Positions 3,525 to 45,991 of a stretch of DNA of 64,000 nt are shown here, piece after piece. The translations under genes and the position numbers were made by a program. The stretch comes from Candidatus Aminicenans sakinawicola JGI OTU-1 (GTDB lineage: Bacteria; Acidobacteriota; Aminicenantia; Aminicenantales; Aminicenantaceae). The DNA lies in contig AWNV01000001.1 in assembly GCA_000493965.1 (NCBI GenBank), positions 41,167 to 105,166 of the forward strand, read 5' to 3'. The number at the start of each line of letters is the position of its first letter. Position 1 is the first letter of the stretch. The notes beneath the pieces are model-generated. The model was not told where the DNA came from. It made no database searches and was given only the letters and a program-made list of their open reading frames with translations.

Positions 3525-3565
3525 TCTATTTTTCTCTCATATTTTATTGAAATATTAACCGTTTT

Positions 3566-4786: not shown

Positions 4787-4919
4787 AATTACTATATGTT
4801 ATTCGACTCGGGAAATTCAAGTACAAAATGTAAGATTTTCTCCACGAATCCCTTTATTCTGACCAAACAATAGAAAGATGCTAGTTTTTCATTATTAAAA
4901 ATTTTAAAACTGAAGAATT

Positions 4920-12112: not shown

Positions 12113-13299
12113 AAGTAGTTCATATCATAGGATACTTTCAACCCGAGTATGGTTATGAAGAATATTATACGGCCTTAAACCAGGCGAAAGTGGGACATGA
12201 GGTTCATGTCCTGACCTCAAACTGGATAGTTCCCATGTCAGGTCTTAAGAGACAGGAGAGAAAGAGAAAGATGGGCATTGAACATGTAGATGGAATTATT
12301 GTCCACAGACTTTTGGGTTTTGATATCCCGAGGGACATGATCTTTATGCCTGGAGCATTCAGTGAATTAAGAAAGATTAAGCCAGACGTGGTGCATTGCC
12401 ATGGAGCAAACCAACCTGTAAATTTCCTTGTCCCCCTGTTAAAAAAAAGATTAGGGTTTATACTGATATATGACCACCATGAGTTCTTTTATGATAGACA
12501 TTCCTATTCCTATAAGGGATTTAATCCTCTCAGATTGATTTTTAAGTTAGAATATTTGCTGTTTCGGAAACATGTAAATAAATGGGCCCTCTCTAGAGCT
12601 GATCATATTATCGCGGTCCTTGATGTTTGTTATGAACACCTTGTAAATTACCTTAGAGTTGACCCGACTAAAGTTACTCTTATAAGATTGGGGGTTGAAA
12701 CCTCGCTGTTCCGTAGAGATGAAGAAGCTGGCATGGAAATTCGAAATAAATGCGGAGTTGCTCCTTCAGACAGGGTTATTTTATTTCCGGGAACCTTTTC
12801 TAGAAGAAAGAAGATCGAACATCTCCTTGAAGTTCTCGTTGAACTTGAACCAAGATGTAAACTCCTTTTAGTAGGAGATGGAAAATCGGACTATATGAGT
12901 GAACTACTTCTTCAAATAAAGCAAAAAGGTCTGGGCAACAGAGTGTTTATTACAGGCAGGGTAGACATTAAAGACCTTTACAGGTATTATTCTGCCTGCA
13001 ATTATTCACTATTTTTAAACAGCTCGAGTGTCTCAATACTTGAGAGTATGAGTTGTGGAGTTCCTCCGATCATTTCACATAAACAGCAGTTTGCCTTTGT
13101 TGCCCAGAATGGCAATGGCTGGGTTTTGCATGGAGGGAACCTCTCTGAATGGGCTTCTGAAATTAAGGAAATTTTTCACAATGATGAAGAGTGGAAGATT
13201 AGGGGAAGAAAGTCGCAGAGATACATGGAAGAAAGTTATTCTTACAGAAATTACGCTAGACAGGTTCAGTCTGTTTATAACATGTTCATAGCCAGATAA
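12109..13299 (+). CDS. Glycosyltransferase family 4
   Basis: GT-B profile; ..SILESMSCGVPPIISHKQQFAFVAQNGNGWVLH..; 4-bp overlap with the upstream gene. Confidence 0.7.
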   Translation: MKVVHIIGYFQPEYGYEEYYTALNQAKVGHEVHVLTSNWIVPMSGLKRQERKRKMGIEHVDGIIVHRLLGFDIPRDMIFMPGAFSELRKIKPDVVHCHGANQPVNFLVPLLKKRLGFILIYDHHEFFYDRHSYSYKGFNPLRLIFKLEYLLFRKHVNKWALSRADHIIAVLDVCYEHLVNYLRVDPTKVTLIRLGVETSLFRRDEEAGMEIRNKCGVAPSDRVILFPGTFSRRKKIEHLLEVLVELEPRCKLLLVGDGKSDYMSELLLQIKQKGLGNRVFITGRVDIKDLYRYYSACNYSLFLNSSSVSILESMSCGVPPIISHKQQFAFVAQNGNGWVLHGGNLSEWASEIKEIFHNDEEWKIRGRKSQRYMEESYSYRNYARQVQSVYNMFIAR

Positions 13300-21918: not shown

Positions 21919-23344
21919 GATATTCAAAAAGAAAAATATTATTCCTTTAACTTATATTGTTTTAATTATTTTTATCTCTGTTTTTTTTCTTTCAATTTCT
22001 CCTCCTACATTGATCGAAGTATATAATCAATCCCAGAATGATATTCCAGTGGGTGAAATATACGGAAGCATGAAGATTGGACAGACTTTTGAGGCAGATC
22101 ATAAAGATTTATCAGCCATAGAAGTTTTGCTGGCAACTTTTAGTAGAGTGAATGAAGGGACTTTCGTCTTTCATCTGAGAGATAGCTTAAAAAGTGAAGA
22201 TAATATGGTTTGGTACAACGTTAATATGAGAGAAGTTCAGGATAATAAGTTCTTTCGTTTCTCTATTCCCAAGATAAAAGATTATAAAGGAAAAAGAATA
22301 TTATTTTCAAAAGGGAAGAAATATTATTTTTATCTGGAATCTCCCCATGCAGAACCTGGGAATGCCATTACCATCTGGTCGAGTTCTGAGAACTTATATA
22401 AGGATGGTGAAAAAATTATCAATGGTGTGCCATCTCAAGGAGATCTAGTATTTAAAACGGAATATGAATTGGGATGGATGTTAAGTTATCATACTCTGTC
22501 AACAAGACTTATGAATATTCTGAATTTTTCCCTTAATCTTTTTAAGAATCAAGTTTTTTATTTTGTAATACTTCTTATGTCGTTTGTCTGGGCCTTTATC
22601 ACACTTGTAACAAAATTTGAAATCTTTCAAAGAAAAGGAGGTATTTTCTTTGTCTTCGGAATTGTGTTTTTTGTTGTATCCCTTTGGATCGTTCTGCTTT
22701 TTATGAAGAAAATAGAAGTTTACAATCAATTTGTCCCCAACAATGCGGCAGGGGAAATTTATGGAGGAAAAAAAGTGGGGCAGACTTTTACAGCCCAGCA
22801 TGACCATCTGATAGCTATTGAGGTATTAATGGGGACTTATAACAGAAAAAACACGGGTGAGTTGATCTTTCATATGAAAGGACAGGCAGGGGATATGATC
22901 GATTTACACCATTCCAGGGTGGATATGCTTAATATCAAGGACAACCGGTATCATCGATTTAAGATCTCTGAAATAAAAAACTCCAAGGGCAGAAAATATT
23001 TTTTTTATTTAGAAGCACCGCAGTCCCAATCTGGAAACACTATAACCATCTGGTGCAATGACGAAGAGGATAAGTACAGAGAGGGGGCGAAGGTTATTAA
23101 TGGCGAAGAGATGGAAGGAGATCTTGTTTTTAAAACCATCTATGCTGTAGGATTGGGAGGGAAAACCGGTTTATTTTTGGGAGAAATTACACGGAATAAG
23201 CCTTCACCTCTGAATACTAAATTGTTATATGTGGGGCTGATTGTTTCCTTCGTTCTCACATGTTCTCTGCTTTTGACCTACATCATTAGAGTTTTTGTGG
23301 AAACGTACGTTATAAAAAAGAAAGAGGGTCATTCTGAATATTAA
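21911..23344 (+). CDS. Membrane protein of unknown function with two tandem copies of a module (one TM helix plus a roughly 150-aa domain)
   Basis: Module 1 is about residues 10-195 and module 2 about 215-405; they align across their length. Example: GEIYGSMKIGQTFEADHKDLSAIEVL..FYLESPHAEPGNAITIWSS..GDLVFKTEYE versus GEIYGGKKVGQTFTAQHDHLIAIEVL..FYLEAPQSQSGNTITIWCN..GDLVFKTIYA. A third TM helix lies at the C-terminus. Confidence 0.6.
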   Translation: MPKIFKKKNIIPLTYIVLIIFISVFFLSISPPTLIEVYNQSQNDIPVGEIYGSMKIGQTFEADHKDLSAIEVLLATFSRVNEGTFVFHLRDSLKSEDNMVWYNVNMREVQDNKFFRFSIPKIKDYKGKRILFSKGKKYYFYLESPHAEPGNAITIWSSSENLYKDGEKIINGVPSQGDLVFKTEYELGWMLSYHTLSTRLMNILNFSLNLFKNQVFYFVILLMSFVWAFITLVTKFEIFQRKGGIFFVFGIVFFVVSLWIVLLFMKKIEVYNQFVPNNAAGEIYGGKKVGQTFTAQHDHLIAIEVLMGTYNRKNTGELIFHMKGQAGDMIDLHHSRVDMLNIKDNRYHRFKISEIKNSKGRKYFFYLEAPQSQSGNTITIWCNDEEDKYREGAKVINGEEMEGDLVFKTIYAVGLGGKTGLFLGEITRNKPSPLNTKLLYVGLIVSFVLTCSLLLTYIIRVFVETYVIKKKEGHSEY

Positions 23345-24749
23345 ACCACAGGTTATCATTCTAGGAGCAGGTATATCCGGAATAAGCTTAGCGTGGAGAT
23401 TGTGCAGTGAGGGAGTTAGAGTTTTGGTGATTGAATCCGCTAATGTTGTTGGAGGTTTAGCTGGAACGCTCCGAGAAAACGGATACTGTATGGATGTTGG
23501 CCCTCATTCTCTTTTTTCTGAGGACAAAGAGATTCTTGATATAATCCTCAATCTTTTTGATAACACATTAATAGCTAAACCGCGACAGGTCAAATTCTAT
23601 TACAGAGGTAAATATCTCGATTACCCTCTAACAGCATACAGCGTGCTTTTTCAGATGGGTATTTGGTCTGGTATGCGCGTTGGATTAAGCTTTTTGAAAA
23701 GCAAGTTTTTATCCAAAAAACATAAAACTCTTAATAGGGAAGAAGAGACTGTTGAGGATTGGGCAATTGCAAGTTTTGGGAAGCATCTTTATAAGACTTT
23801 TTTTAAGCCTTATACTGAACAATTCTGGAAGTTACCTTGTACAGAGTTATCGTCCCGCACTATTCCCACTCATACACGAATGAGCTTTATTAATACGCTG
23901 CGTCTGCTTTTACAGAAGCGATTCACCAAATCGGATGCGTCTCTTATCGAACGAGAAATGCTGCCTACTTATTACCCGAATTCAGGTTTTGGAGAAATCC
24001 CTGAGAGAATTGCTGTTGAAGTTAAGAAAAGGGAAGGGCAGATCTATACAAATTGCCGGGCTTTGAGAGTCAAAAAACTGCCAAGTGGGGGAATGAGTGT
24101 TTTGTATGAGCAAAACGGAAAACAAAAGGAAGTTAGAAGTGCTTATGTGGTTTCAACTATACCAATTAATGAATTTATCAAGATGCTAAATCCGCCGCCG
24201 CCTCCGGAAATTCTAGCGTCGGCTGATGGGCTCAATTATCGTGCGCTTACATCTCTGGGAATTGTGACAGAGAAGCAAAATATTCTTAATTGCAGTTATA
24301 TCTATGTTTTGGATCGTCCATACAACCGTATTTCTGAAATGAATGAGTTCAGCCAAACAACAAGTCATGCAGGAGATAATATCATTATGATCGAAATACC
24401 GTGTCACAGAGATAGTACTGTATGGACAGCTTCAAAAGAAAAACTGTTTGATATGTGCATTGGCAGCCTGGCAAAGGATGGTATCCTGGGGCCGGGAGAT
24501 GTAAAACATTTACTCGTAATAAGATCACCGCATGCCTATCCAATTTACAGTAAAGACTATGCAAAGAACCTGAATAAAGTCTTCGATTATATAAATGGAA
24601 GCAAAGGGATATCAATATTGGGGAGGACTGGTGAATTTATCTACTCGGATATTGATAAGTGTATGAAAAGAGCCTTTGATTTTGCCGATAGGTTTTTAAA
24701 GGATTATTGCATGGAGATAAAGTCCAAAAAAGGAGAACAGCATGCCTAA
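23340..24749 (+). CDS. FAD-dependent oxidoreductase, UDP-galactopyranose-mutase-like (Glf/amine-oxidase fold), paralog 1
   Basis: Rossmann motif VIILGAGISGISLAW..VVGGLAGT..DVGPHSLF and Glf-like C-terminal GRTGEFIYSDIDKC. The GxGxxG motif lies upstream of the first ATG/GTG/TTG codon (the TTG at 23400), so the start is probably ATT 23340 or CTG 23334, both preceded by AGAGGG. Confidence 0.5.
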   Translation: MKPQVIILGAGISGISLAWRLCSEGVRVLVIESANVVGGLAGTLRENGYCMDVGPHSLFSEDKEILDIILNLFDNTLIAKPRQVKFYYRGKYLDYPLTAYSVLFQMGIWSGMRVGLSFLKSKFLSKKHKTLNREEETVEDWAIASFGKHLYKTFFKPYTEQFWKLPCTELSSRTIPTHTRMSFINTLRLLLQKRFTKSDASLIEREMLPTYYPNSGFGEIPERIAVEVKKREGQIYTNCRALRVKKLPSGGMSVLYEQNGKQKEVRSAYVVSTIPINEFIKMLNPPPPPEILASADGLNYRALTSLGIVTEKQNILNCSYIYVLDRPYNRISEMNEFSQTTSHAGDNIIMIEIPCHRDSTVWTASKEKLFDMCIGSLAKDGILGPGDVKHLLVIRSPHAYPIYSKDYAKNLNKVFDYINGSKGISILGRTGEFIYSDIDKCMKRAFDFADRFLKDYCMEIKSKKGEQHA

Positions 24750-25959
24750 ATGTCGCATATGTAAGGCTAATTATGAACCTTTTGTTTTTTTTGGAAAAAT
24801 GCCTATTGCCAATGGATTTTTGTCTCCTGAGGAATTTGAAAATGAGTATTTTTTTGATTTAAAAGCAGGATATTGTTCTAACTGCAACATGGTTCAATTG
24901 GTGGAGCAACCCGACCGCGAAAAAATGTTTCATGAAAATTATGCGTTTTATTCTTCGACTTCAAAGCTGATGGCATTACATTTTAAACAATTCTCGGAAT
25001 CGGTCATTAAGAACCATTTAAAATCTTCTGATCCTTTTGTTGTTGAACTTGGCAGTAATGACGGTATAATGTTACAAAATTTTGCTTCCGCAGGGATTCG
25101 TCACCTGGGAATCGAGCCCTCTGCTAATGTTGCTCAGGTAGCAATAGATAAGGGCATTCATACAATGTGCGAGTTCTTTGATAAAAAAGTTGCCAAAAAA
25201 ATTATAAAAAGCTATGGACAGACTGATGCTTTTCTTGGGGCTAATGTAATGTGTCATATCCCTTATATCCATTCTATTGTGGAAGGAATCAAGAGTCTTC
25301 TTAAGCCTAATGGTTTCCTTCTTTTTGAGGATCCCTATTTAGAGGATGTTATTAAAAATACAACATATGATCAGATCTATGATGAACATGTATTTTTATT
25401 TTCAGTTTTATCTGTTAAGTATCTTTTTGAGCAGTATGATATGGAGGTTATTGATATTGAACCTCAAGAAACACATGGAGGGTCTATGAGGTATATTTTA
25501 GCTCATAAAGGAGCATATCCCGTTTCGAATAGAGTCAGCCGCCAGATAGAAGAAGAGAAGATATTTGGTTTAGATAAACCGGAGACTTATCGGCTTTTCC
25601 GTAAAAGCTGTGAATATTCCCGGGATAGCCTTATAGAGCTGTTAAATAAAATTAAGCAGAAAGGGCAGAAAATTGTCGGTTATGCGGCAACATCGAAAAG
25701 CACTACTATTATCAACTATTGTGGGATTTCTACAGATCATATTGATTACATATGTGATACTACTCCGCTCAAACAGGGAAAATTTACTCCAGGATCTCAT
25801 ATTCCAGTCCAGCCTTATGAGGATTTTGTTTCAAATTATCCTGAATATGCTCTTCTTTTTGCCTACAACCATAAAAAGGAAATTATGGCCAAAGAAGAAA
25901 AATATAAAGAATCCGGAGGAAAATGGATTCTTTATACACCAAAAGTGCAGATATTATGA
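24742..25959 (+). CDS. Sugar C-methyltransferase-like protein (N-terminal zinc ribbon plus class I SAM methyltransferase plus C-methyltransferase C-terminal domain)
   Basis: [33 protein letters not shown] zinc-binding N-terminus followed by [15 protein letters not shown], a SAM-binding motif, as in TylC3/NovU-type NDP-hexose C-methyltransferases. Confidence 0.6.
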
Positions 25960-27062
25960 TGATATTATGCAGTAATCCAAAAGCTCAATACCTTTCATAT
26001 AAAAGTGAAATAGATGCTGCTGTTTCCAGGGTTCTAAACAGTGGGTGGTATATTCTTGGTGAGGAAGTAAAAAAGTTCGAGGAAGAGTTTGCCGGATATA
26101 TTGGAGTAGCAAAGGGAGTTGGGGTTGCCAGTGGAACAGAAGCCCTGCATCTGGCCTTACTAGCCTACGGGGTAGGATCGGGTGATGAGGTTATTACTGT
26201 TTCTCATTCGGCAGTAGCCACTACTACAGCCATTTGTCTTTCCGGTGCCTTTCCTCGATTTGTGGATATTGAGCCGCAATTTTATACTATTGACCCAGAG
26301 AAAATAGTATCAGCTATCAAGCCTAACACAAAAGCTATTATCCCAGTCCATATCTATGGACATCCGGCAGATATGGATCCTATATTGGAAATCGCTAAAA
26401 AACATAATCTTTTGGTAATAGAAGATTGTGCTCAAGCGCATGGAGCAATGTACAAAGGAATGCGTGTAGGTTCGTTAGGCGATGTTGGATGTTTCAGTTT
26501 TTATCCAACTAAGAATCTTGGTGCAATTGGTGATGGAGGGATGATTGTTACAGATAATACTGCTTTGGCGGAGAAAGCAAAATTATTGCGTGAATATGGG
26601 TGGGTTGAGCGAAATGTTAGTTCTTATAAAGGATTAAATTCGAGATTGGATGAAATACAGGCAGCTATTTTGCGTGCTAAACTGAAACATCTTGATAAAG
26701 ATAATTTATTAAGAAAACACTTGGCAGATATATATAGCTCAGAATTAAAGAATACAAGTCTAATGTTGCCTCTTTTAAGAAAGGAGACATCGCATGTTTA
26801 TCACCTTTTTGTCATCCGGTCTAAAAAACGTGATATATTGTTTTCTTTCTTAAGAGAAAAGAGTATTGGAGTATCAATCCATTATCCTGTTCCTATACAT
26901 CTTCAGCCGGCTTACAGCCATTTTGGAAACAGAGAGCTTCTTCCAGAAACAGAAAAGGTTACAAAGGAGATTCTCTCACTGCCCATTTTCCCGGAATTAA
27001 AGACATCTGAAGTTAAACAGATAACACATGCCATAAAAGAATTTGAATCTAATGGAGGGTAG
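25956..27062 (+). CDS. DegT/DnrJ/EryC1/StrS-family PLP-dependent sugar aminotransferase
   Basis: ..[34 protein letters not shown]..; the ATG at 25956 overlaps the upstream TGA (ATGATGA). A longer open frame from 25923 is possible. Confidence 0.8.
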
Positions 27063-27522
27063 AACTGTGATCGAGGGAGTTATTATAAAAGAAATTAAGA
27101 GTCACATTGACGAGAGGGGATTTTTCAGTGAGATCCTTCGTGTAAATGAGGATTTTCATCCAGGCGATATTGGTCAGATTAGCCATTCTTTTGTTAAAAA
27201 GGGAGTTCTTAAAGCCTGGCATATGCATACATTTCAATCACAGTGGAATTATGTGGTATGCGGATTGATCAAAGTAGCTTTACACGATACTCGCAAAGAA
27301 TCACCCACTTTTCACCAGACAATTGAGCTTTTAACTGGTGATGATCAAGCTCCAAAAGTTTACTTTTTCCCTCCTGGAGTTGCGCATGGGTATATTTGTT
27401 TAAAGAGCCCTATGCATATTATCTATGTTACATCCGGAGTTTATGATATTTCTGATGAAGTCCGTATTCCTCATAATGATCCAGATATTGGGTATGATTG
27501 GCTGAAGAACAAAATAACATAA
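27043..27522 (+). CDS. RmlC-like cupin: NDP-4-keto-sugar 3,5-epimerase or 3,4-ketoisomerase (WxcM/FdtA-like)
   Basis: ..[12 protein letters not shown]....[19 protein letters not shown].. parallels RmlC ..DERGFF..RGLHFQ.., but the protein is short (159 aa), like the FdtA/WxcM isomerases. Confidence 0.6.
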
Positions 27523-27530
27523 TAAATAAG

Positions 27531-28508
27531 ATGTTATCCTATTTTTGCGGAAAAAAAATTTTAATAACAGGGGGAAATGGTTATATTGCGTCTAACTTAG
27601 TTCACAAACTTAAAAATATCGACTGCACTATTGTCCGAGCAGATAGAGCTTTTGATACACCCACAATAAACGGAAGAGCAAGCATAAGGGATGTGATTGG
27701 AGATATTAAGGATAAAAGTTTTTTTGAGGGAGTCTTGGAAAGTATTGATATTGTGTATCATTTTGCTGCACAGACCAGTCTATATCAAGCAGAAAAGAAC
27801 CCTATGGACGATTTTTCAGTTAATGTTGTTCCGATGCTTAATTTACTGGAAACTTGTCGATATAGAGGGTGGAAGCCAGCCATTATTTTCTCCGGCACTG
27901 TTACTGAGGTAGGTATTCCTAAGAATTTACCGGTTAATGAGACTTGCTGTGACTGTCCGGTTTCTATATATGATATGCATAAATTGATGGCTGAAAATTA
28001 TTTAAAATATTATTCCAAGCGGGGAATTGTGTTTGGTACGGTTTTGCGTTTGGCGAATGTATATGGGCCTGGCCCTAAGAGCAGCAGTAGTGACCGAGGC
28101 GTGCTGAATATGATGATTAGAAAGGCACTGGCAGAAGAACCTTTAAATATCTACGGCACAGGGGAATATTTAAGGGATTATATATTTGTAGAAGATGTAG
28201 TGCGGGCGTTTCTTGAAGCCGCTATTCATAAGGATCAAGTAAATGAGAAATATTTTATTATTGGCAGCGGAGAGGGGATAAAACTCAGTCAGGCTGTAAA
28301 TCTTGTTGCAGATAGAGCTGCTTTAAAAACAGGAAAGAGAGTGCCAGTCAGGCATGTTGATCCTCCATCCATTCTGCATCCAGTTGAGTTTCGAAATTTT
28401 ATTGCGGATCCGAAGTTATTTATGAATTCTACAGATTGGAAAATAAATTTTTCTTTGATCAAAGGAATAGACTGTACTATTGACTATTTTTCAGGCGCTA
28501 AAATATAA
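27531..28508 (+). CDS. NAD-dependent epimerase/dehydratase (extended SDR) no. 1
   Basis: KILITGGNGYIASNL Rossmann motif and YDMHK (YxxxK); the ATG at 27531 lies in a frame that is open from the TTG at 27498. Confidence 0.7.
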   Translation: MLSYFCGKKILITGGNGYIASNLVHKLKNIDCTIVRADRAFDTPTINGRASIRDVIGDIKDKSFFEGVLESIDIVYHFAAQTSLYQAEKNPMDDFSVNVVPMLNLLETCRYRGWKPAIIFSGTVTEVGIPKNLPVNETCCDCPVSIYDMHKLMAENYLKYYSKRGIVFGTVLRLANVYGPGPKSSSSDRGVLNMMIRKALAEEPLNIYGTGEYLRDYIFVEDVVRAFLEAAIHKDQVNEKYFIIGSGEGIKLSQAVNLVADRAALKTGKRVPVRHVDPPSILHPVEFRNFIADPKLFMNSTDWKINFSLIKGIDCTIDYFSGAKI

Positions 28509-28596
28509 TAGCAAAAAAGATGCTATTGAAAAAACAGAATATATATTTATTTTATTGAAGAGAGCTATTGTATTAAATCAATAAAAGTGATTAAAG

Positions 28597-29616
28597 ATGC
28601 TAAAAAGAATTGAGAAAAATAACATATCACTTCCTTCCTTAAAAGGCAGAAGAGTTCTTATCACAGGAGGGTTAGGTTTTATAGGAAGCAATCTGGCACA
28701 TAAATGTGTAGAGTTAGGGGCTGAAGTCACAATTTTTGATGTTTTAGATCCCCGGTCAGGAGGAAATCTATATAATATTCAGGGAATTCAGGATTCAGTA
28801 GAACTGCAATATTTTAACATTCTCGACTTTGGCCAAGTATCTCAAAGTGTAATAAAGAAGGATATTATTTTTAACTGTGCAGCATCAACATCTCATCCTT
28901 TTTCTATGATAGAGCCATGGATCGATCTGGATATAAACAGTAAAGGAGTGATTAATTTACTTGAGGCAATTCGTCGTTTTAACAGAGAGGTGAAGTTTAT
29001 ACATTTGGGTACAAGCACTCAGTTAGGAAAGCTACAATTTCAACCAGCAGATGAAAATCATCCTGAATTTCCTACTGATATCTATTCTGCAAACAAATGT
29101 GTTTCGGAAAAGTATACTTTGATATATTCAAGAGCAAGGCAGATATGTGGTTCTGTCCTTAGGCTGACGAATGTTTATGGCCCGAGAGCTAGTATACACA
29201 GCCCGGAGTTTACATTTAACAATTTTTTTATTGGATTGGCCTTACAAGGGAAAGAAATTACAGTATATGGTGATGGCAGCCAATTGCGAAACATAATTTT
29301 TGTTGATGATGTTGTTGAGGCTCTTATCCTTGCGTCCCAGTGTTCAAAGATAAATAATGAAACATTTTTTGTAGCCGGAGATTTTCATTACAGCATCTCA
29401 AATATTGCAGAAGAGATAGTGAAACATATGAAGAGAGGAAAAGTAAAATATGTGGAATGGCCAAAAGACAGAAAATCAATCGATTTTGGAGATGCCATAA
29501 TAAGTAATCAGAAGATCAAAAAAGTATTAAATTGGACTCCTCGAACTGATTTTAAAACTGGTTTAATTAAGACTAGGGATTATTATAAAAATTGTTTGGA
29601 AGAATATTTGAGGTGA
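28597..29616 (+). CDS. NAD-dependent epimerase/dehydratase (extended SDR) no. 2
   Basis: VLITGGLGFIGSNLAHK; YSANK catalytic dyad. Confidence 0.75.
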   Translation: MLKRIEKNNISLPSLKGRRVLITGGLGFIGSNLAHKCVELGAEVTIFDVLDPRSGGNLYNIQGIQDSVELQYFNILDFGQVSQSVIKKDIIFNCAASTSHPFSMIEPWIDLDINSKGVINLLEAIRRFNREVKFIHLGTSTQLGKLQFQPADENHPEFPTDIYSANKCVSEKYTLIYSRARQICGSVLRLTNVYGPRASIHSPEFTFNNFFIGLALQGKEITVYGDGSQLRNIIFVDDVVEALILASQCSKINNETFFVAGDFHYSISNIAEEIVKHMKRGKVKYVEWPKDRKSIDFGDAIISNQKIKKVLNWTPRTDFKTGLIKTRDYYKNCLEEYLR

Positions 29617-29620
29617 TATT

Positions 29621-30553
29621 ATGAAAATTGTGATTACTGGAGCTTTGGGGCATATAGGCTCAAAAGTTATCCGGGAAATCCCAGAAACTTTCCAAGAACC
29701 TGAAATTGTTATGATCGATAATATGTTGACTCAACGCTACTGTTCTTTGTTTAACTTACCTGCTCGCGGGAAATATTCTTTTATAGAAGCAGATGTATTA
29801 AATATGGAACTATGCCCCATTATTGAGGGAGCTGATTTTGTCCTGCATTTGGCTGCTATTACTGATGCCACAAGCAGTTTTAAAAACAAAGATCAGGTTG
29901 AAAATGTCAATTATAAAACAACAGTGAGGGTTTCCGAGGCTTGTAATGAAGTTGGATGCCCCATGATCCATTTTTCAACAACCAGCGTATATGGCACCCA
30001 ACAAAACGTTGTAGATGAAGATTGTTCTCCTGAGGAACTACGGCCACAAAGCCCCTATGCAGAGACAAAATTGAGGGAAGAACAATTTTTGCAAAATTTT
30101 GGCGCAGCAGAAAATTTGGATTTTTTAATATGTCGTTTTGGAACAATATGTGGGATTTCTCCTGGGATTCGCTTTCATACAGCGGTGAATAAATTCTGCT
30201 GGCAGGCTGTTATGAAGCAGCCGCTTTCTGTATGGCGGACAGCTTTATTTCAAAAGCGTCCCTATTTGGTTCTGAGTGATGCAGTGAAAGCCATTATATT
30301 TATAATTAAAAACAACTTGTTTGATAAAAGGATTTATAATGTCCTATCAGAAAATAGGACAGTACATTCCATTATTCAATGTATAAAACAATATATTCCC
30401 CAGTTAAATATTCAATATGTAAATGCCGAGATCATGAATCAGTTATCTTATGAAGTCTCAAACCTGCGCTTCAAAGAACAAGGATTTGAATTTTCAGGGA
30501 GTGTAGATAAAAGTATTCAAGAAACGATTCAATTACTTTTAACTGTGAAATAA
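29621..30553 (+). CDS. NAD-dependent epimerase/dehydratase (extended SDR) no. 3
   Basis: MKIVITGALGHIGSKV; YAETK. Confidence 0.7.
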   Translation: MKIVITGALGHIGSKVIREIPETFQEPEIVMIDNMLTQRYCSLFNLPARGKYSFIEADVLNMELCPIIEGADFVLHLAAITDATSSFKNKDQVENVNYKTTVRVSEACNEVGCPMIHFSTTSVYGTQQNVVDEDCSPEELRPQSPYAETKLREEQFLQNFGAAENLDFLICRFGTICGISPGIRFHTAVNKFCWQAVMKQPLSVWRTALFQKRPYLVLSDAVKAIIFIIKNNLFDKRIYNVLSENRTVHSIIQCIKQYIPQLNIQYVNAEIMNQLSYEVSNLRFKEQGFEFSGSVDKSIQETIQLLLTVK

Positions 30554-33186
30554 ACATCCGGTTTTCTATTCTTAATGGTTGTAATCAGAAATAGAAAAAA
30601 ATAAGATGCATATGATAGAGCCTTTAAATAGAATGTTATAAAATCAACCTTATGATAAAATTCTACAGTATGAAGACCTGGAGGTAAATTAATCCCCATG
30701 AAACCGCCTTCTAACACTTCTATCTTTCCAGGCACTTTATCTGTTCTTACTTTCCAATATTTATCATTGAACATTTCAAAATATAGAAATCTCCTAAAGC
30801 TTGTGTCTACTTTAATCCGCAGGTAATCTCCTCTAAATTCTTCAATTTTAATATCTCTCAATATTTTTTGGAAGCTTATAACTATTTTTTGCGGTCTATA
30901 ATCCCTGCTTAAGGAAATATTTAGAGTTTTTGCTTTCTCATAGTTTAGTTGGTACTGGCCTGCTTCGTAAAAATCATTATACCAAGTTTCTTTCAGAAGT
31001 TTATTATTGGACATAACCGAGATGTATATCCTGGTATCACTATAGGAATTAGTTGAATAATAATATGGAATTTGAGGATGAACCAGCTTATATATGTTTA
31101 TACCATACCTATCAAGGCTGCGGTGCAACTTAAATGCGGAAAAAGGGAAAGTCAAAACAGTCTCATCTTTTTCAGGATAGTAAATATGATCCAAAAAACT
31201 GCTTAAGTCAATATACTCTTGGTGGATTATTTTCTTATAGAAAGCATTCATAATTTCTTTATTTTTTACCAAACCGATTATCGGCTTATGCAATACCTTT
31301 TTTTTGATCTCTGCGTCAGGGATAGCATCTATACCTTTATAGAAAGGGAGCAGTTTTTTGTATGTTAGATCAACTAGATTCAATTCCGAAAACACCTTGC
31401 TGTATACAGTAAGATATCCCCTACATGTATCTATACGGTACTGCTTTGATAAATAACTAATAAAGGGTTCGAAGGAAGTATCTCGTGGCAACGAACTATC
31501 TTCCTTTCTTAATGGAGGAAGAGAGTATGGCTTCCAATAATCGACTTTGCGGTAGTAGTTACTTGTGTAATAGTAGTTCATCATTAGTTGAGAGAAGATG
31601 AGCATACCGAGAATCGGAAGTAGCATGTTTTTTCTCCATTTTTTATTTATGTTTGACTCTATAAAATACATGGCTAGAATCATCAGTATTAGCAACCCAA
31701 ATATCTGTATCAAAAAGGTGATCCAATTACCTGAATTCGAGCCGAGGATAATCAGAGTGAAGGAAGTGAAGCGATGTATATATCTCTGGGAGAGTGGACC
31801 TGCAAGGAAGGGAACAAGAATAAAAATAATCAATACCAAACTATATATTCTAGATTTCTTCGTTAAAATCTTCCCTGTTTTACGCAAATTATCAAAAATA
31901 CTATTTATCCCATATCCAATTAACACGATCAATGGTAATGCTGCATAATCAAATAAATAATTAATCCACCGTGTCTTTCTGAAAATTTCAAGTTGATAAA
32001 ACAATTTATATAGCCATGATTCACTTCCCATGCCGATATAAAATAACAATAGGAATAGAGACAAAAATAAATACTTTAATTTATTTTTTGAGAAGAGCAG
32101 GGCCATGCCAATAAAAAAAAGGCCTATGGATCCAATATAGGCACTCTGAGCCATTCTATCGTAGCCTTGTGTCTCTACAGGGTAGACATACTGCACTATG
32201 TCTTGTGGTTTGTAATCTACTGCCTCAGAAAGCAGAATGTATTGTCTATCGCTCCCTCCCCAACTCATGGGATTTGTATAAAAATCACTGAGGGATGGTA
32301 ACATTAAAAGCATCGGCAATGAGATTATGAGGAATGAAATAAAAAGGGAAAAAAAGTTAAAAGCATTGCCCTTGATAAAAATTAATGAATCCTTTGTTAT
32401 TTTTTTCAGAATACATACGAAATCATTAGATTTTTTGTATTCTATGATTCTCATAATGAGTAAGTAACTTATCAGGATGAAAACGAAAGTCGTGATATAA
32501 AAAAAGGCATGTATCATCATTCTACCGGAATACAATATCTGGCCAAGCAAAAAACCTTGAATAACATAAATATAAATAGAAGCCTTTTTATTTGATAAAA
32601 ATATTTTGATAAAAAATAGTGAAATCCAAGGAATAAACATAAATGCTGTTAATACATTATGTACTGCTTCAAGAAGGGAGAGTGACCAACCACTGAAGAT
32701 AACAAATAGAAGTGTACAAAACACAACCCTTTTATCTTTAATAAGATGCTTTAATAGAAAATAAAAACCACCTATGAAAATAAAGAAGTAACATAAGTAA
32801 ATAATATATATCTTATAAATTACGTGCACATCTAAATCGACTCCAATTGTCCGGAAAAAACGCATTATTTGCAGATAGCCCAAGAAGATAGGTGAATTGA
32901 TACAGTTTATATAAGAATACATAAGGAAGTTATGACCACCTATCACATAAGGTTCCCACGTTGGAATTTTTCCATAATTCATAAAATAACTTATTTGAAA
33001 TGAGAAAGTACCATAGTCATTGGTAGCATCAGCGAATTCAAGCCGATTGAAGTGATTTGAACCGATAAAGAAGTGATAGACAAGCAGTAAGAAAATAAGT
33101 GGAACAAGTTTCCTTGCGGTCTTGGTGAATTGCTCCTTAATTTTCCTCAATTTCTCTCGGCTGACATTTTTGGATGAGTGTATCAC
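30529..33186 (-). CDS. YfhO-family large polytopic membrane protein (GT-C-like)
   Basis: 885 aa with more than 15 TM helices; N-terminal ..YGKIPTWEPYVIGGHNFLMYS.. resembles the YfhO signature (PLWNPYIFGG.P); a large extracytoplasmic C-terminal domain. Confidence 0.55.
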   Translation of the reverse strand: MIHSSKNVSREKLRKIKEQFTKTARKLVPLIFLLLVYHFFIGSNHFNRLEFADATNDYGTFSFQISYFMNYGKIPTWEPYVIGGHNFLMYSYINCINSPIFLGYLQIMRFFRTIGVDLDVHVIYKIYIIYLCYFFIFIGGFYFLLKHLIKDKRVVFCTLLFVIFSGWSLSLLEAVHNVLTAFMFIPWISLFFIKIFLSNKKASIYIYVIQGFLLGQILYSGRMMIHAFFYITTFVFILISYLLIMRIIEYKKSNDFVCILKKITKDSLIFIKGNAFNFFSLFISFLIISLPMLLMLPSLSDFYTNPMSWGGSDRQYILLSEAVDYKPQDIVQYVYPVETQGYDRMAQSAYIGSIGLFFIGMALLFSKNKLKYLFLSLFLLLFYIGMGSESWLYKLFYQLEIFRKTRWINYLFDYAALPLIVLIGYGINSIFDNLRKTGKILTKKSRIYSLVLIIFILVPFLAGPLSQRYIHRFTSFTLIILGSNSGNWITFLIQIFGLLILMILAMYFIESNINKKWRKNMLLPILGMLIFSQLMMNYYYTSNYYRKVDYWKPYSLPPLRKEDSSLPRDTSFEPFISYLSKQYRIDTCRGYLTVYSKVFSELNLVDLTYKKLLPFYKGIDAIPDAEIKKKVLHKPIIGLVKNKEIMNAFYKKIIHQEYIDLSSFLDHIYYPEKDETVLTFPFSAFKLHRSLDRYGINIYKLVHPQIPYYYSTNSYSDTRIYISVMSNNKLLKETWYNDFYEAGQYQLNYEKAKTLNISLSRDYRPQKIVISFQKILRDIKIEEFRGDYLRIKVDTSFRRFLYFEMFNDKYWKVRTDKVPGKIEVLEGGFMGINLPPGLHTVEFYHKVDFITFYLKALSYASYFFLFLITTIKNRKPDVYFTVKSN

Positions 33187-36587: not shown

Positions 36588-37532
36588 ATGAAAATATTTA
36601 TTGCTGGAGGAGCTGGCTTTATTGGAAATTATACTACAGAATTTCTTTTAAGTGATAAAGAGAATAAAATCATAATCTTTGATAATTTTTCATCTCCTGG
36701 TTCGAGAAAGAACTTAGCCCATTTTAAAAACAATAACTTTTTAAAGATAATTGAAGGTGACATACAGAATTTGGAACTATTAGCCAAATCAATGAAAGGA
36801 TGCGAGAGAGTATATCATTATGCATCAAATCCAGATATAGCAAAAAGCATGACTCAGCCAGATTTAGATTTTTATCAAGGTACCCTTTTAACACAAAATA
36901 TTTTAGAGGCAATGCGAATCAATAATATAAAAATTATTATATATACTTCGGGAAGTGGAATTTACGGCGATCAGGGAGAGATGCCTATAGGGGAAGATTT
37001 TGCCCCTATGCTTCCTGTATCAACTTATGGAGCAAGTAAGCTAGCTTCTGAATCTCTAATTTCAGCTTATTGTCATATGTTCAATATGAATGCTTATGTT
37101 TTTCGGCCAGCAAACGTTGTCGGGAAGCGTCAAACTCATGGGGTTGCTTATGATTTTATAAAAAAGCTTAGAGCAAATCCTCACAAGTTAGAAATATTAG
37201 GTGATGGCTCTCAGAGTAAGTCTTATATTTACGTCAAAGATTTAATTGATGCTATCCATTATGTGATGGAAAATGATCATGATTTATTCAATTATTATAA
37301 TGTAGCTACTGATGATTATATTGATGTAAAAAGGATAGCTGAGATTGTAATTGAAGAGATGGGATTGAAAAATGTTAGTCTTTTATTTGGTCCTGAAAAA
37401 AGAGGCTGGAAAGGAGATGTCCCCATAGTCAGATTTAGTCTGGATAAAATTCATAAATTAGGCTGGTTTGCTAAGATGAGCAGTGAGGAAGCTGTAAGCC
37501 GCTCTGTTTCTGAAATGTTAAGCTGTACCTGA
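36588..37532 (+). CDS. NAD-dependent epimerase/dehydratase (UDP-hexose 4-epimerase-like SDR) no. 4
   Basis: MKIFIAGGAGFIGNYT; YGASK. Confidence 0.75.
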   Translation: MKIFIAGGAGFIGNYTTEFLLSDKENKIIIFDNFSSPGSRKNLAHFKNNNFLKIIEGDIQNLELLAKSMKGCERVYHYASNPDIAKSMTQPDLDFYQGTLLTQNILEAMRINNIKIIIYTSGSGIYGDQGEMPIGEDFAPMLPVSTYGASKLASESLISAYCHMFNMNAYVFRPANVVGKRQTHGVAYDFIKKLRANPHKLEILGDGSQSKSYIYVKDLIDAIHYVMENDHDLFNYYNVATDDYIDVKRIAEIVIEEMGLKNVSLLFGPEKRGWKGDVPIVRFSLDKIHKLGWFAKMSSEEAVSRSVSEMLSCT

Positions 37533-37540
37533 GAAAATAA

Positions 37541-38242
37541 ATGCAAGCAGTCATAATGGCAGGAGGATTGGCTACAAGGATTAGACCTCTAACCAATGAG
37601 ATTCCAAAGTCGTTAGTATCAATCGAAGAAAGACCTTTTTTACAGTATCAAATAGAATTACTTACTTGCTATGGCATAAAAGATATTATTCTGTGTGTGA
37701 GTTACATGGGTAAAAAAATTGAGAACTGTTTTGGTGATGGGAATAAATATAATGCAAGAATAATATATTCATATGAAAAAGAAAAGCTTTTAGGAACTGG
37801 GGGAGCTCTTAAATTAGCTGAAAAAAATCTTAAAGAAAATTTTTTTTTAATATGGGGAGATTCCTATGTTAATTTAAATTATAAAGAAATGCATGACTTT
37901 CATCTAAAGAATTCTGATAATTTCGATGTCACAATAGCAATTTTTTATAACATAAGAAATTATGATAAAAGTAATATTGTTTATAAGAGTGGAAAAATAA
38001 AAAAATATGAAAAAAATTCAACCGATAAAATGAAATATATCGATGCTGGAGTAATGGTTATAAATAAGAAGTTATTATTAAGAATACCTCCTGGAAAGGT
38101 TTTTCAAATAGAAAATTTATTTACTAAACTAGCAAAAGAAGAGAAAATAAAACCTTTTTTAATAAAAAAAAGATATTATGAGGTAGGGTCATTAAAAGGA
38201 TTAAATCAATTCACAAAATTCGTAAAGAGAAATCAAATTTAA
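37541..38242 (+). CDS. Sugar-1-phosphate nucleotidyltransferase (HddC/RmlA-like NTP_transferase)
   Basis: MQAVIMAGGLATRIRPLTNEIPKSLV N-terminal nucleotide-binding signature; 233 aa. Confidence 0.75.
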   Translation: MQAVIMAGGLATRIRPLTNEIPKSLVSIEERPFLQYQIELLTCYGIKDIILCVSYMGKKIENCFGDGNKYNARIIYSYEKEKLLGTGGALKLAEKNLKENFFLIWGDSYVNLNYKEMHDFHLKNSDNFDVTIAIFYNIRNYDKSNIVYKSGKIKKYEKNSTDKMKYIDAGVMVINKKLLLRIPPGKVFQIENLFTKLAKEEKIKPFLIKKRYYEVGSLKGLNQFTKFVKRNQI

Positions 38243-38262
38243 AAATCCGTTCAGTAAGAATA

Positions 38263-38340
38263 AAGTGCAAAGCTCGTGAAGCAAGATAAAGCTGCTAAGT
38301 GCAGTTTTACTTGCAGTAGTGTTATTTAGAGATTTAGATC
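38263..38340. repeat. Degenerate non-coding copy of the 5' end of the gene at 42769 (direct repeat, left copy)
   Basis: aagtgcaaagctcgtgaagcaagataaagctgctaagtgcagttttacttgcagtagtgttatttagag aligns with 42754-42836 (aatgtgcaaagcccttgaagcgatataaaac..gctgagtgcagttttacttgcagtagtgctatttaaag). The left copy carries a 9-bp deletion and an in-frame stop. Confidence 0.7.
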
Positions 38341-38351
38341 AGATTTTATAG

Positions 38352-39644
38352 ATGAGAATGAAGAGTAAAAAAGAAACTGCAATCTTAGGTGGGGGGCTGG
38401 CAGGTCTTTCAACCGCATATTTCATGAAGGATAACTGCATCGTTCTAGAAGAAAATAACGAATTAGGAGGGTTATGCAGAAGTTTTAAAAAAGATGGTTT
38501 TGTATATGATATAGGAGGACATATTCTTTTTTCTAAGAATAAAAAGATATTGTCAGAAATAGTAAGCTGGTTGAGAAATAATGTTCGAAGAAAGTACCGA
38601 AAGAATCAAGTCTGGTATAAGGATAGATTTGTGAAATATCCGTTTGAAAATGGACTTTATTCTTTAGATAAAAAAGAAATATATGATTGTTTAATAGGTT
38701 ATCTGATAAATGAGAATAAAGAACCTAAGAACTTAGAGGAATGGTGTAAATATACTTTTGGCAATGGAATAGCGGAAAAATACTTGATCCCTTATAACGA
38801 AAAGATTTGGAAACATGATTTAGAAGACATGTCAACTCATTGGGTTGAGAGAATTCCGAAGCCTCCAATGAAAGATATAATAAAATCTGCAATTGGAATA
38901 AGGACAGAAGGATACAGACATCAACTTTATTTTTATTACCCAAAAATTGGTGGAATAAATTCACTTATCAATTTTTTAAAAAATAATGTAAAGAATATAG
39001 AAAAAGGATTTAAAGTAACAGGAATAAAAAAGAAGAATAACAAATGGAAAGTTTCAAACGGTAGTAAAATAAAAGAATTTGATCGCATTATTTCTACAAT
39101 CCCAGTCTTTGATTTAATCAGTTGTTTAGATGGAGTTCCTGCTGAGGTAAAAGGAGCTCTCAAGAGACTAAATTATAATTCTTTGATTGTTGTCATGATT
39201 GGAATTAAAAATGAAACATTTAATAATAAAACAGCTATCTATATACCTGACCGTAATATTTTGCCTCATAGAGTATGCTTTATGAAATATTTCTCTAATA
39301 AAAATGCTCCTGAAGGCTGCTCTCATTTAATAGCTGAAATTACAGTTAAACCCAATGATGCTTTATTAAAGATAAATGATAGCACTATTGTCGAAAAAGT
39401 ATCCTGTCAATTGGAAAGAATTTGTGGATTTTCAAAGAATGAAATAATTTCTACTGATATACAAAGAATAAAATATGCATATGTGATATATGATAAAGAT
39501 TATTCAAAAAACACAGACATTGTTTTTGGTTATTTAAACGATCTTGGAATATATTGCACAGGAAGATTTGGTGCTTTTCAATACATCAACATGGACACTT
39601 GCGTAGAAATGTCAAAAAGATTAGTTCGATCTTTGAATAATTAG
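38352..39644 (+). CDS. UDP-galactopyranose-mutase-like FAD enzyme, paralog 2
   Basis: ILGGGLAGLSTAY..ELGGLCRSF..DIGGHILFSK and C-terminal CTGRFGAFQYINMDTCVEMSKRL (compare Glf GGRLAEYKYYDMHQVI). Confidence 0.65.
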   Translation: MRMKSKKETAILGGGLAGLSTAYFMKDNCIVLEENNELGGLCRSFKKDGFVYDIGGHILFSKNKKILSEIVSWLRNNVRRKYRKNQVWYKDRFVKYPFENGLYSLDKKEIYDCLIGYLINENKEPKNLEEWCKYTFGNGIAEKYLIPYNEKIWKHDLEDMSTHWVERIPKPPMKDIIKSAIGIRTEGYRHQLYFYYPKIGGINSLINFLKNNVKNIEKGFKVTGIKKKNNKWKVSNGSKIKEFDRIISTIPVFDLISCLDGVPAEVKGALKRLNYNSLIVVMIGIKNETFNNKTAIYIPDRNILPHRVCFMKYFSNKNAPEGCSHLIAEITVKPNDALLKINDSTIVEKVSCQLERICGFSKNEIISTDIQRIKYAYVIYDKDYSKNTDIVFGYLNDLGIYCTGRFGAFQYINMDTCVEMSKRLVRSLNN

Positions 39645-39692
39645 AAATTAAATAAAATCCGTGTAAGAAATTTTTCTTAACTGAGGGGTAAT

Positions 39693-40694
39693 ATGATTAT
39701 AACAAGAACACCTTTTAGATTTACTCTTGGAGGAGGAGGGACTGATCTACCATCATATTATTCAAAGTATGGAGGTTTTATTTTTGCAGCTGGAATCAAC
39801 AAGTATATGTTTATCAACGTTAACCGCACTATTGTGGATAATTTAGTTCGGGTTAAGTATTCTAAATCAGAGACAGTGACTCATAGAGACGAATTAAAGC
39901 ACCCCATTGCAAAGGAAGCAATGAGGATGACTGAAATTGAAAATTCTTTGGAAATTGTTTCGATAGCTGACATACCTGCTGGAACAGGCTTGGGTTCTTC
40001 AAGTTGTTATGCCGTAGGACTTCTCAATGCTCTTCACACCATGAAAAGGGAATACATTCCACTCCATGAGCTTGCTGAGGAAGCTTGTGACCTTGAGATA
40101 AATAGACTTGGGGAACCTATTGGAAAACAGGATCAATACATGGCTGCCTTCGGGGGGTTGACAGTATTGGACATCAAAAAGGATGGCAATGTGTATGTTA
40201 GGTCAGCAAAATTAGAGGATTCATCCATGGATGATTTAAACAGGAATCTCCTCATGTTTTACACCAACACAACTCGCAGTGCAAATAAGATACTTTCAGA
40301 GCAGAGTAAAGGGATAAAAGAAAAAAAGGAGAATGTTGTAAAAAGTATGCATTATATAAAAGAGATTGGATATAAGATGCTTGAGGCACTTGAAGGTGGT
40401 AATATCACTGATGTAGGACTACTGTTTGATAAACACTGGCAGTATAAGAAGATGATGTCTACTAAGATTTCAAATCCCTGGTTCGATGAGATTTATGAGA
40501 CTGCCAAGCAAAATGGCGCCCTGGGTGGGAAGATTTCTGGGGCTGGCGGGGGTGGTTTCTTTCTCTTTTATACGGAAGAAAATCATAGTAAATTAAGAGA
40601 AGCCATGAGAAAGTTGAATTTAAGAGAGATGCGGTATAGATTTGATTTAGAAGGAACAAAGGTAATTGTGAATTTTATGGAAGGTGTAAGGTAA
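39693..40694 (+). CDS. GHMP-family sugar kinase (HddA-like D-glycero-D-manno-heptose 7-phosphate kinase or galactokinase-like)
   Basis: MIITRTPFRFTLGGGGTDLPSYY N-terminus, PAGTGLGSSS ATP-binding motif and a C-terminal GAGGGGF motif. Confidence 0.75.
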   Translation: MIITRTPFRFTLGGGGTDLPSYYSKYGGFIFAAGINKYMFINVNRTIVDNLVRVKYSKSETVTHRDELKHPIAKEAMRMTEIENSLEIVSIADIPAGTGLGSSSCYAVGLLNALHTMKREYIPLHELAEEACDLEINRLGEPIGKQDQYMAAFGGLTVLDIKKDGNVYVRSAKLEDSSMDDLNRNLLMFYTNTTRSANKILSEQSKGIKEKKENVVKSMHYIKEIGYKMLEALEGGNITDVGLLFDKHWQYKKMMSTKISNPWFDEIYETAKQNGALGGKISGAGGGGFFLFYTEENHSKLREAMRKLNLREMRYRFDLEGTKVIVNFMEGVR

Positions 40695-40702
40695 TTTTTC
40701 AA

Positions 40703-41884: not shown

Positions 41885-41929
41885 AAATTAAGATGAAATG
41901 GAAATCAATATGATAACAAAGGAGGAACA

Positions 41930-45940: not shown

Positions 45941-45991
45941 CTGCTCCCAGAGCAATGTCCGTTAAGGACTTTTGCTGGGAGCATTTTTTTT
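45941..45991 (+). terminator. Rho-independent terminator between convergent genes
   Basis: Stem ctgctcccagagcaa (45941-45955) / ttgctgggagca (45972-45983) followed by an 8-T run (45984-45991). Confidence 0.6.

Follow-up and report, generated by a model that had tools for sequence, protein, structure and literature searches.

Can a branched, C-methylated amino sugar be assembled without a dehydratase? Sugars of the 3-amino-3-C-methyl type have been encountered chiefly in antibiotics (vancomycin-type glycopeptides, kijanimicin and tetrocarcin), where their synthesis depends on a 2,3-dehydratase. The question is raised by a 64 kb stretch of contig AWNV01000001.1 from Candidatus Aminicenans sakinawicola, referred to throughout as the window, in which six adjoining genes on the + strand (positions 24742-30553) encode a methyltransferase (MT), an aminotransferase (AT), an RmlC-like cupin and three extended short-chain dehydrogenases/reductases (SDR1, SDR2 and SDR3), and in the whole of which no rmlA, rmlB, gmd, PF02719-type dehydratase or 2,3-dehydratase gene was found. 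In our favoured model, to which we assign a probability of roughly 0.55 taken as a whole, that is for the starting sugar, the order of the steps and the product together, this cassette would serve the surface-glycan locus in which it lies by turning a nucleoside diphosphate (NDP) 4-keto hexose into a 3-amino-3-C-methyl sugar.

The proteins of the window were analyzed by means of Pfam and NCBIfam profiles, sequence ranking against the PDB and a listing of open reading frames (ORFs). The six contiguous enzymes named in the initial annotation of this DNA are confirmed by the ORF list and Pfam; their genes are intact and the coordinates fit. Homology gives good support, and comparative genomics strong support, to what had been read from them, namely a unit for an amino sugar with a C-methyl branch. 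The "deoxy" character attributed to the same sugar is unproven, since in view of the missing 2,3-dehydratase, rmlA/B and gmd it hinges on genes outside the window.

Conservation of the cassette and displacement of its genes

Homologues of MT number in the thousands at E < 1e-30, the best 120 being 65-77% identical and distributed over many candidate phyla, and a pattern scan with one genome per species recovers close relatives in at least 444 species, so that the proposed rarity of such sugars in surface glycans holds among characterised glycans only. For the 80 best loci (MT 58-71% identical) ORFs were called, the window proteins were searched and the neighbours were clustered. These loci belong to Planctomycetota, Syntrophales and other Deltaproteobacteria, Nitrospirota, Elusimicrobiota, Bacteroidota, Acidobacteriota, Omnitrophota, Verrucomicrobiota, Chloroflexota and the archaeon Methanoperedens, and 56 of them, with at least 9 kb of sequence downstream of MT, are informative. 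The complete six-gene set, as defined by ortholog clusters, occurs in 23 of these 56 loci, spread over about ten phyla at 40-75% identity, and wherever the gene order was inspected it is that of the window. MT, AT and SDR3 (the latter in 51/56 loci) form the constant core, and SDR2 and SDR3 are always adjacent. MT and AT overlap by 37 nucleotides (nt), an arrangement kept across homologous loci; the AT-cupin, cupin-SDR1 and SDR2-SDR3 spacings are 4-9 nt, and 88 nt separate SDR1 from SDR2. Because this synteny is conserved, we take the six genes to work together, and to judge from these comparisons they are one horizontally mobile cassette, beyond any chance grouping.

The recurrent extra neighbours are a GT2 glycosyltransferase, a second DegT aminotransferase (AT2), a PglD_N/hexapeptide acetyltransferase, and CmcI-type and other methyltransferases. 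Nucleotidyltransferases, dehydratases and 2,3-dehydratases do not recur near the cassette in the 56 loci, and three Pfam-annotated contexts contain no 2,3-dehydratase either. In the loci from Elusimicrobiota, CPR3 and Saganbacteria (L086, L087 and L088) the cassette stands beside NeuB, a CMP-synthetase, a NeuC-like protein, a PglD-like protein and paired GFO_IDH_MocA oxidoreductases. Nonulosonic-acid genes, present in all three Pfam-annotated contexts, were considered as part of the cassette core but rejected, as NeuB lies within 10 kb of the cassette at only 10 of the 80 genome loci. Plasmids of cultured bacteria yielded nothing closer to MT than the Streptomyces antibiotic-cluster enzymes (46%), and the GenBank phage collection yielded no close homologue of it (at most 46% identity).

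Comparison of the loci reveals two gene displacements. The first one concerns SDR1, which is mutually exclusive with AT2: SDR1 occurs without AT2 in 32 loci and AT2 without SDR1 in 13, and no locus combines the two. AT2 is closest to the C4-aminotransferase GDP-perosamine synthase (238 bits), and the LbH acetyltransferase encoded beside it is closest to PerB and VioB. Perosamine synthase, PerB and VioB all act at C4, the latter two by acetylating C4 amines. Since SDR1 is swapped either for AT2 and a PerB-like protein or for an RmlD-like SDR, the last intermediate would be a 4-keto sugar, and SDR1 would be the terminal C4 ketoreductase. Variants lacking SDR1 and carrying a PerB-like acetyltransferase together with a perosamine-synthase-like aminotransferase were observed at loci L009, L014, L024, L032, L037 and L044, and again at L064, L069, L073, L079, L080 and L087, often with a CmcI-type methyltransferase added; from their gene content, a 3,4-diamino-3-C-methyl sugar with a 4-N-acetyl group would be predicted. 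In a further variant a divergent SDR2 (~40% identity) occurs together with a divergent AT (~42%).

The second displacement concerns SDR2. FdtA (PF05523, 3e-46 and 2e-43) is confined to loci devoid of SDR2, being present in five of these nine and in none of the 47 others (Fisher p = 3e-5, a value that overstates independence, the loci being kin by descent and transfer), and the five FdtA loci come from five different lineages. A tblastn search of the window with FdtA gave no match. This distribution suggests that SDR2 does the job of FdtA. Both displacements recur in two viral contigs from IMG/VR, which carry a compact cassette (L089, positions 1551-7249; L090, positions 1003-6735) in the order GT2, C3-MT, AT, FdtA, short RmlD-like SDR, SDR3, GT2, GT9, where FdtA replaces SDR2 and the RmlD-like reductase replaces SDR1. 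Identities to the window proteins are 54-56% for the C3-MT, 54% for AT and 50-52% for SDR3, and on one of the two contigs there is also an ORF resembling a phage SU10 adaptor. The sugar may thus be specified by phages, for instance in surface-antigen conversion.

Enzyme assignments and the favoured route

MT (24742-25959, +, 405 residues) is a zinc-ribbon methyltransferase of the KijD1/TcaB9/EvaC type, dependent on S-adenosylmethionine (SAM), with the Pfam domains PF08421 Methyltransf_13 (3e-18), PF13489 class I SAM (2e-13) and PF08484 Methyltransf_14 (2.7e-53). The last of these, covered over 159 of its 160 profile positions, is the C-terminal domain of C-methyltransferases; together with the nearest solved relatives, which are sugar C3-methyltransferases, its presence leaves the proposed C-methylation standing. 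KijD1 (5t64) aligns with MT at 442 bits and 46% identity over 403 residues without gaps, followed by TcaB9 (409 bits) and by the mycarose C3-methyltransferase 4rv9, a hydroxy-sugar enzyme (255 bits). Invariant in 13 homologues are the zinc-ribbon cysteines C4, C7, C45 and C48 as well as the segment Y213-D-E215-H216, which matches the YDEH of KijD1 in the alignment and in which we take Y213, E215 and H216 to correspond to the catalytic Tyr222, Glu224 and His225 of TcaB9. The substrates of KijD1 and TcaB9 are 3-amino-4-keto sugars, and MT would by analogy be a sugar C3-methyltransferase acting on an NDP-3-amino-4-keto sugar.

AT (25923-27062, +, 379 residues) matches the Pfam family DegT_DnrJ_EryC1 at 2e-120, in agreement with the initial annotation, and is a genuine enzyme dependent on pyridoxal phosphate: its Schiff-base lysine K197 (SFYPTK197) is invariant in 64 orthologues, which identifies a true aminotransferase, unlike the ColD-type dehydratase. 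The best PDB matches are 7b0d (411 bits), 7n63 (357 bits), QdtB (355 bits), DesV (333 bits) and 5u1z, presumably WlaRG (311 bits). Taken together, C3-aminotransferases, including QdtB, DesV and WbpE, score between 270 and 411 bits, against 206 bits for perosamine synthase, 132 bits for DesI and 112 bits for PseC among the C4-aminotransferases of the PDB. Orthologues of AT adjoin FdtA at two genome loci (L027 and L059) and stand beside it in the two viral contigs, which points to a 3-keto sugar as the substrate; AT is probably of the sugar C3-aminotransferase type and would act at C3.

All three SDRs of the cassette are matched by the Pfam families Epimerase/GDP_Man_Dehyd (SDR1 5e-47, SDR2 8e-41, SDR3 6e-31). 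A 4,6-dehydratase, for which the initial annotation had recommended looking, is not among them: the acid/base pair of these enzymes was sought in all four SDRs of the window and none has one. SDR2 (28597-29616, +) resembles RmlB in its best sequence matches (dTDP-glucose 4,6-dehydratases; 2hun, 118 bits), in its extended-SDR fold, in the Tyr-x3-Lys motif and in the NAD-binding Asp, D48, which is invariant. It differs from RmlB at the catalytic site, where the Thr-Asp-Glu of the structures 2hun and 6bi4 corresponds to T139-S140-T141, with Ser or Thr replacing Asp-Glu in 51/51 orthologues, and its score against TIGR01181 is 147 bits for a cutoff of 365. By both motif and score, SDR2 is an RmlB-derived SDR devoid of the dehydratase residues and not a member of the RmlB family. 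We infer that it supplies AT with a 3-keto (or 3,4-diketo) substrate, and it could do so either as a redox isomerase with bound NAD or as a C3 dehydrogenase giving a 3,4-diketo sugar.

For SDR3 (29621-30553, +) the top PDB match is 6vo6, which we take to be the GDP-heptose C4 dehydrogenase Cj1427. It scores 86 bits when SDR3 alone is compared and 122 bits with a profile of 37 sequences, where the margin over C4-epimerases, at 115 and 113 bits, is small. All of its top matches begin their chemistry with an oxidation at C4. In 52 sequences D33, S119, T121, S122, Y146 and K150 are invariant; at the position of the dehydratase motif the protein reads S-T-T-S-V-Y-G and an Asp/Glu pair is missing. 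Transamination of a 3-keto sugar at C3 leaves no carbonyl, and an oxidase is consequently needed between AT and MT, because MT requires a carbonyl next to C3 and the terminal reductase or C4-aminotransferase requires a 4-keto group. As the sole constant candidate, with relatives that all oxidise C4, SDR3 would be this oxidase, an NAD-dependent C4 dehydrogenase making the 4-keto group needed by MT.

SDR1 (27531-28508, +, 325 residues; mechanical ORF from 27498), the putative terminal reductase, has T134, Y158 and K162 conserved among orthologues. A role as a GMD/UXS-like dehydratase, suggested by T136-E137, was rejected, E137 being variable. The start of SDR1, like that of the cupin (27067-27522, +, 151 residues; mechanical ORF from 27043), is taken from gene calls on identical public contigs. 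The cupin matches PF00908 dTDP_sugar_isom (2e-24) and scores at most 63 bits with RmlC structures, 41 bits with EvaD and 71 bits with TIGR01221, for a cutoff of 156. H60, H62, R84, H115 and Y128 are invariant in 40 orthologues, H60 and Y128 preserving the catalytic His base and Tyr acid of RmlC. The position of the enolate-stabilising Lys (presumably ~K73 of RmlC) is occupied by N69/W68, with Trp or Asn among the orthologues, and the protein (159 residues vs. 183) stops short of the C-terminal region that provides the Asp (presumably ~D170) of the RmlC His-Asp dyad. On these features the cupin is classified as RmlC-like only, not as RmlC proper. Its absence from 8 of 47 otherwise intact cassettes containing SDR2 makes it optional, as expected of an epimerase that sets stereochemistry only, and it probably epimerises a 4-keto sugar at C5 (or at both C3 and C5). 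The invariant H60-x-H62 prompted us to consider the cupin as the 3,4-ketoisomerase; as its main role this was rejected, since the eight cassettes lacking the cupin also lack FdtA.

These assignments can be arranged in a route whose regiochemistry, step order, nucleotide carrier and 6-deoxy status are deduced from the domain identities, catalytic residues, synteny and displacements observed. It would most likely start from dTDP-4-keto-6-deoxy-D-glucose provided by rmlA/rmlB located elsewhere in the genome. SDR2, as an RmlB descendant, or FdtA in the variant cassettes, would yield the 3-keto isomer, which AT would transaminate at C3 to a 3-amino sugar; SDR3 would then re-oxidise C4 with NAD+ to give the 3-amino-4-keto sugar, and MT would deprotonate C3 beside the 4-keto group and methylate it from SAM in the fashion of KijD1 and TcaB9. 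An optional epimerisation of C5 by the cupin would be followed by reduction of C4 by SDR1 to the final 4-OH. The predicted product is a vancosamine-like NDP-3-amino-3,6-dideoxy-3-C-methylhexose in which the 2-OH is retained, because isomerisation and re-oxidation replace the 2,3-dehydratase. The matches of MT, AT, the cupin, SDR2, FdtA and the RmlD-like enzyme favour dTDP as the carrier.

Several points weigh against this route. The whole pathway is deduced from genes, and the regiochemistry of AT and MT follows from a ranking of nearest homologues; for AT, the top NCBIfam models are those of the C4 enzymes PseC (265 bits) and ArnB (251 bits), all of them below cutoff. Neither the window nor the inspected neighbourhoods contain rmlA/B, and entry through dTDP-4-keto-6-deoxyglucose is thus an assumption. 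Contrary to a dTDP carrier, the best matches of AT2, the LbH protein and SDR3 are GDP-sugar enzymes. No SDR is known to us to work as a 3,4-ketoisomerase, and the narrow profile margin of SDR3 and the kinship of the loci behind the FdtA statistics count on the same side.

A further-reaching reading is more doubtful. According to it, the product class is a 2-hydroxy 3-amino-3-C-methyl hexose unreported in any glycan or natural product, SDR2 is a new type of enzyme, namely an RmlB-derived NAD-dependent 3,4-ketoisomerase or C3-dehydrogenase that supplants FdtA, and SDR3 is dedicated to re-oxidising C4, which allows C-methylation to take place with the 2-OH left in position; the sugar would adorn the surfaces of uncultured bacteria from hundreds of lineages and of at least one archaeon (Methanoperedens), as well as glycans that certain phages specify. 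No description of the cassette, or of a 2-hydroxy 3-amino-3-C-methyl sugar in glycans, was found in the literature, of which coverage was incomplete. The cassette is widespread and amenable to experiment, its sugar is probably new, and the roles of SDR2 and SDR3 may be new, with no new principle involved.

Alternative routes and products

The strongest competitor of the favoured route, though in our opinion an unlikely one, retains the product chemistry and makes the cassette self-contained, starting from a primary NDP-hexose: SDR3 would oxidise C4 without dehydration, SDR2 would oxidise C3 to a 3,4-diketo sugar, AT would convert the latter to the 3-amino-4-keto sugar, and MT, the cupin and SDR1 would follow, giving a product that keeps both the 2-OH and the 6-OH and is not 6-deoxy. 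Such a scheme would account for a cassette that travels without rmlA/B, gmd or any dehydratase, it gives each enzyme a single action, and it parallels the 3,4-diketo logic of the Eva pathway. On the same side, the NAD-type Asp is invariant in SDR2 (D48) and in SDR3 (D33), whose genes are always adjacent, and the nearest relative of SDR3 is a dehydrogenase that keeps the 6-OH. It is the FdtA variants that are difficult to reconcile with this scheme, as SDR3 would have to act twice in them and as FdtA and RmlD-like enzymes are known as hallmarks of dTDP-6-deoxyhexose pathways; moreover, no SDR oxidising C3 of an NDP-sugar is known to us.

If MT acted on a 3-hydroxy-4-keto sugar in the way of TylC3, and AT then aminated C4, a 4-amino-3-C-methyl sugar of the kansosamine/sibirosamine type would result, a kind of sugar that occurs in mycobacterial glycolipids. 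The NCBIfam ranking of AT, headed by PseC and ArnB, is in line with this possibility, but those scores are all below cutoff and the PDB comparison favours C3- over C4-aminotransferases (112-206 bits). Variant cassettes moreover contain a separate Per-like C4-aminotransferase besides AT, FdtA next to AT orthologues implies a 3-keto substrate, and MT is nearer to amino-sugar methyltransferases than to 4rv9, all of which renders a 4-amino product improbable.

Similarly improbable is an antibiotic-type 2,3,6-trideoxy-3-amino-3-C-methyl sugar, as in vancosamine or kijanose, for which another part of the genome would have to contribute a 2,3-dehydratase. EvaC, EvaB, EvaD and EvaE would be the counterparts of MT, AT, the cupin and one SDR, respectively, and homologues bear the JGI label "methylation protein EvaC"; yet a 2,3-dehydratase is found neither in the window nor among the recurrent neighbours of the 56 loci nor in the three Pfam-annotated contexts, and two conserved extra SDRs (or FdtA and SDR3) would be superfluous in the Eva route. 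EvaA being absent, the cassette is, by its gene content, not a member of the Eva pathway. Finally, the many other sugar genes of the window, with several Wzy/Wzx proteins and a second SDR/nucleotidyltransferase/kinase block, might suggest that the six genes belong to several unrelated sugar pathways (at least two) brought together by chance in a densely packed glycan region, an explanation hardly credible for genes whose order and content are kept over about ten phyla and phage contigs at 50-75% identity, including the 37-nt overlap of MT and AT.

Genomic surroundings and relation to known systems

The glycan region around the cassette extends over at least 45 kb, mostly on the + strand, and encodes Wzx flippases, three Wzy-like proteins, many GT4 and GT2 glycosyltransferases, WecB, an initiating phosphoglycosyl transferase and PMT_2-like proteins. 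The GT2 gene that trails the cassette in 25 loci and the CmcI-type methyltransferase were sought in the window, and neither was found. The identical sequence is present in the single-cell genome GCA_000398225.1 and in many metagenome assemblies. In a single-cell assembly (L004, ASLH01000002.1) an 18 kb inversion appears to split the cassette: at its junction (12799-12818, corresponding to window positions 27540-27559 and 45983-46002) the beginning of SDR1 is fused with the region past a 685-residue Wzy-like gene, taken in reverse complement. The junction shows A/T-rich microhomology only and no real inverted repeat; four metagenome assemblies side with the window, and the rearrangement is probably a chimera of amplification or assembly. 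The best promoter-like match of the region (11/12: TTGACT, 18 nt, TATAAT) lies at 28480-28509 and spans the SDR1 stop at 28508, directly ahead of the gap between SDR1 and SDR2, which is the point where other loci insert extra genes and which fits a two-module layout; the promoter and terminator scan of the region gave no enrichment relative to shuffled sequences.

The flavoenzyme gene that precedes the cassette (23340-24749, +; called ORF 23400-24749) was initially described as Glf-like, which is correct in a loose sense: the protein is an FAD (flavin adenine dinucleotide) enzyme of the Amino_oxidase/PRK07208 type, its GLF score is 25.3 bits for a threshold of 26.3, and it does not belong to the conserved unit. 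With an orthologue upstream of MT in one other locus only (L016, 63% identity), it is probably accessory. Its reading frame continues upstream of the called TTG at 23400 through ILGAGISG (the FAD/NAD GxGxxG motif) to a stop at 23313 and contains no ATG, GTG or TTG between these two points, and a sequence resembling a ribosome-binding site, GAAAGAGGG (23320-23328), is followed by ATT codons at 23331 and 23340; translation probably begins at a non-canonical codon, and gene callers shorten the gene. PRK07208-type paralogues in the window number four, at 23400, 38352, 52592 and 53760.

On the other side, an ORF of 885 residues (30529-33186, -) converges on the cassette with a 25-nt overlap at the SDR3 stop region. 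It has no Pfam or NCBIfam match and is conserved in other assemblies of the organism. Its first 500 residues contain 10 or more hydrophobic segments and precede a large C-terminal part, an architecture that may belong to a GT-C-like transferase or polymerase. A second sugar block (36588-42622) encodes SDR4, a MurU/HddC-like nucleotidyltransferase, a flavoenzyme, an HddA-like GHMP kinase, a PFK-like kinase and an FSA/TalC-like aldolase, and contains neither GmhA nor GmhB; at locus L010 (~1300-6000) homologues of SDR4, the kinase, the nucleotidyltransferase and the aldolase are located 4-9 kb upstream of the cassette. Between the glycan gene blocks lies an AbiEi/AbiEii type IV toxin-antitoxin pair (48070-49511), and a DDE transposase gene (815-2227, -) adjoins a radical-SAM gene cut by the start of the window.

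The cassette points to a second, dehydratase-free answer to the chemistry of branched amino sugars, employed for cell-surface glycans in a large part of the uncultured bacteria. If the favoured model is correct, the bacterial glycome would gain a new monosaccharide, and the cassette would give a function to three "NAD-dependent epimerase/dehydratase" annotations that are very common, yield enzymes toward 2-hydroxy analogues of vancosamine-type sugars for glycodiversification, and offer a marker of surface-antigen variation and phage-host interplay in environmental bacteria.

Comparison with known systems shows where the individual parts recur. The pathways to dTDP-L-epivancosamine (Eva; Amycolatopsis, chloroeremomycin) and to D-kijanose and D-tetronitrose (KijD1, TcaB9) share with the cassette, as its enzymes are assigned here, a C3-aminotransferase, a zinc-ribbon C3-methyltransferase with the Tyr/Glu/His residues, an RmlC-like epimerase and a C4 ketoreductase. 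These actinomycete pathways reach the 3-amino-4-keto intermediate through a 2,3-dehydratase. In contrast, the cassette contains neither such an enzyme (EvaA/KijB1) nor an N-oxygenase, would arrive at the 3-amino-4-keto sugar via SDR2 and SDR3, and is set in a surface-glycan locus of uncultured bacteria rather than in an antibiotic cluster. With the Fdt/Qdt pathways (dTDP-Fuc3NAc and dTDP-Qui3NAc of S-layers and O-antigens) it has in common AT, for which QdtB is the nearest among named enzymes, and, in the variant and phage versions, FdtA; unlike them, the window has SDR2 in place of FdtA and no N-acetyltransferase of the QdtC/FdtC type, and the cassette would add C4 re-oxidation, C3-methylation and C4 reduction. 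The capsular heptose module Cj1427/Cj1430/Cj1428 of Campylobacter jejuni combines a C4 dehydrogenase and a C4 reductase, both of them SDRs, with an RmlC-like cupin epimerase and proceeds without dehydration, the net C4 oxidation by Cj1427 relying on tightly bound NADH that is recycled by alpha-ketoglutarate (PMC10680097). The cassette would follow the same oxidise-epimerise-reduce logic, and SDR3 is nearest to 6vo6, although this similarity is modest (86-122 bits) and the Campylobacter module uses a GDP-heptose and lacks both aminotransferase and C-methyltransferase. By analogy, the cassette would thus work like a hybrid of the Fdt/Qdt pathway, the C3-methylation of the Eva, Kij and Tca pathways and the Cj1427/Cj1430/Cj1428 module.

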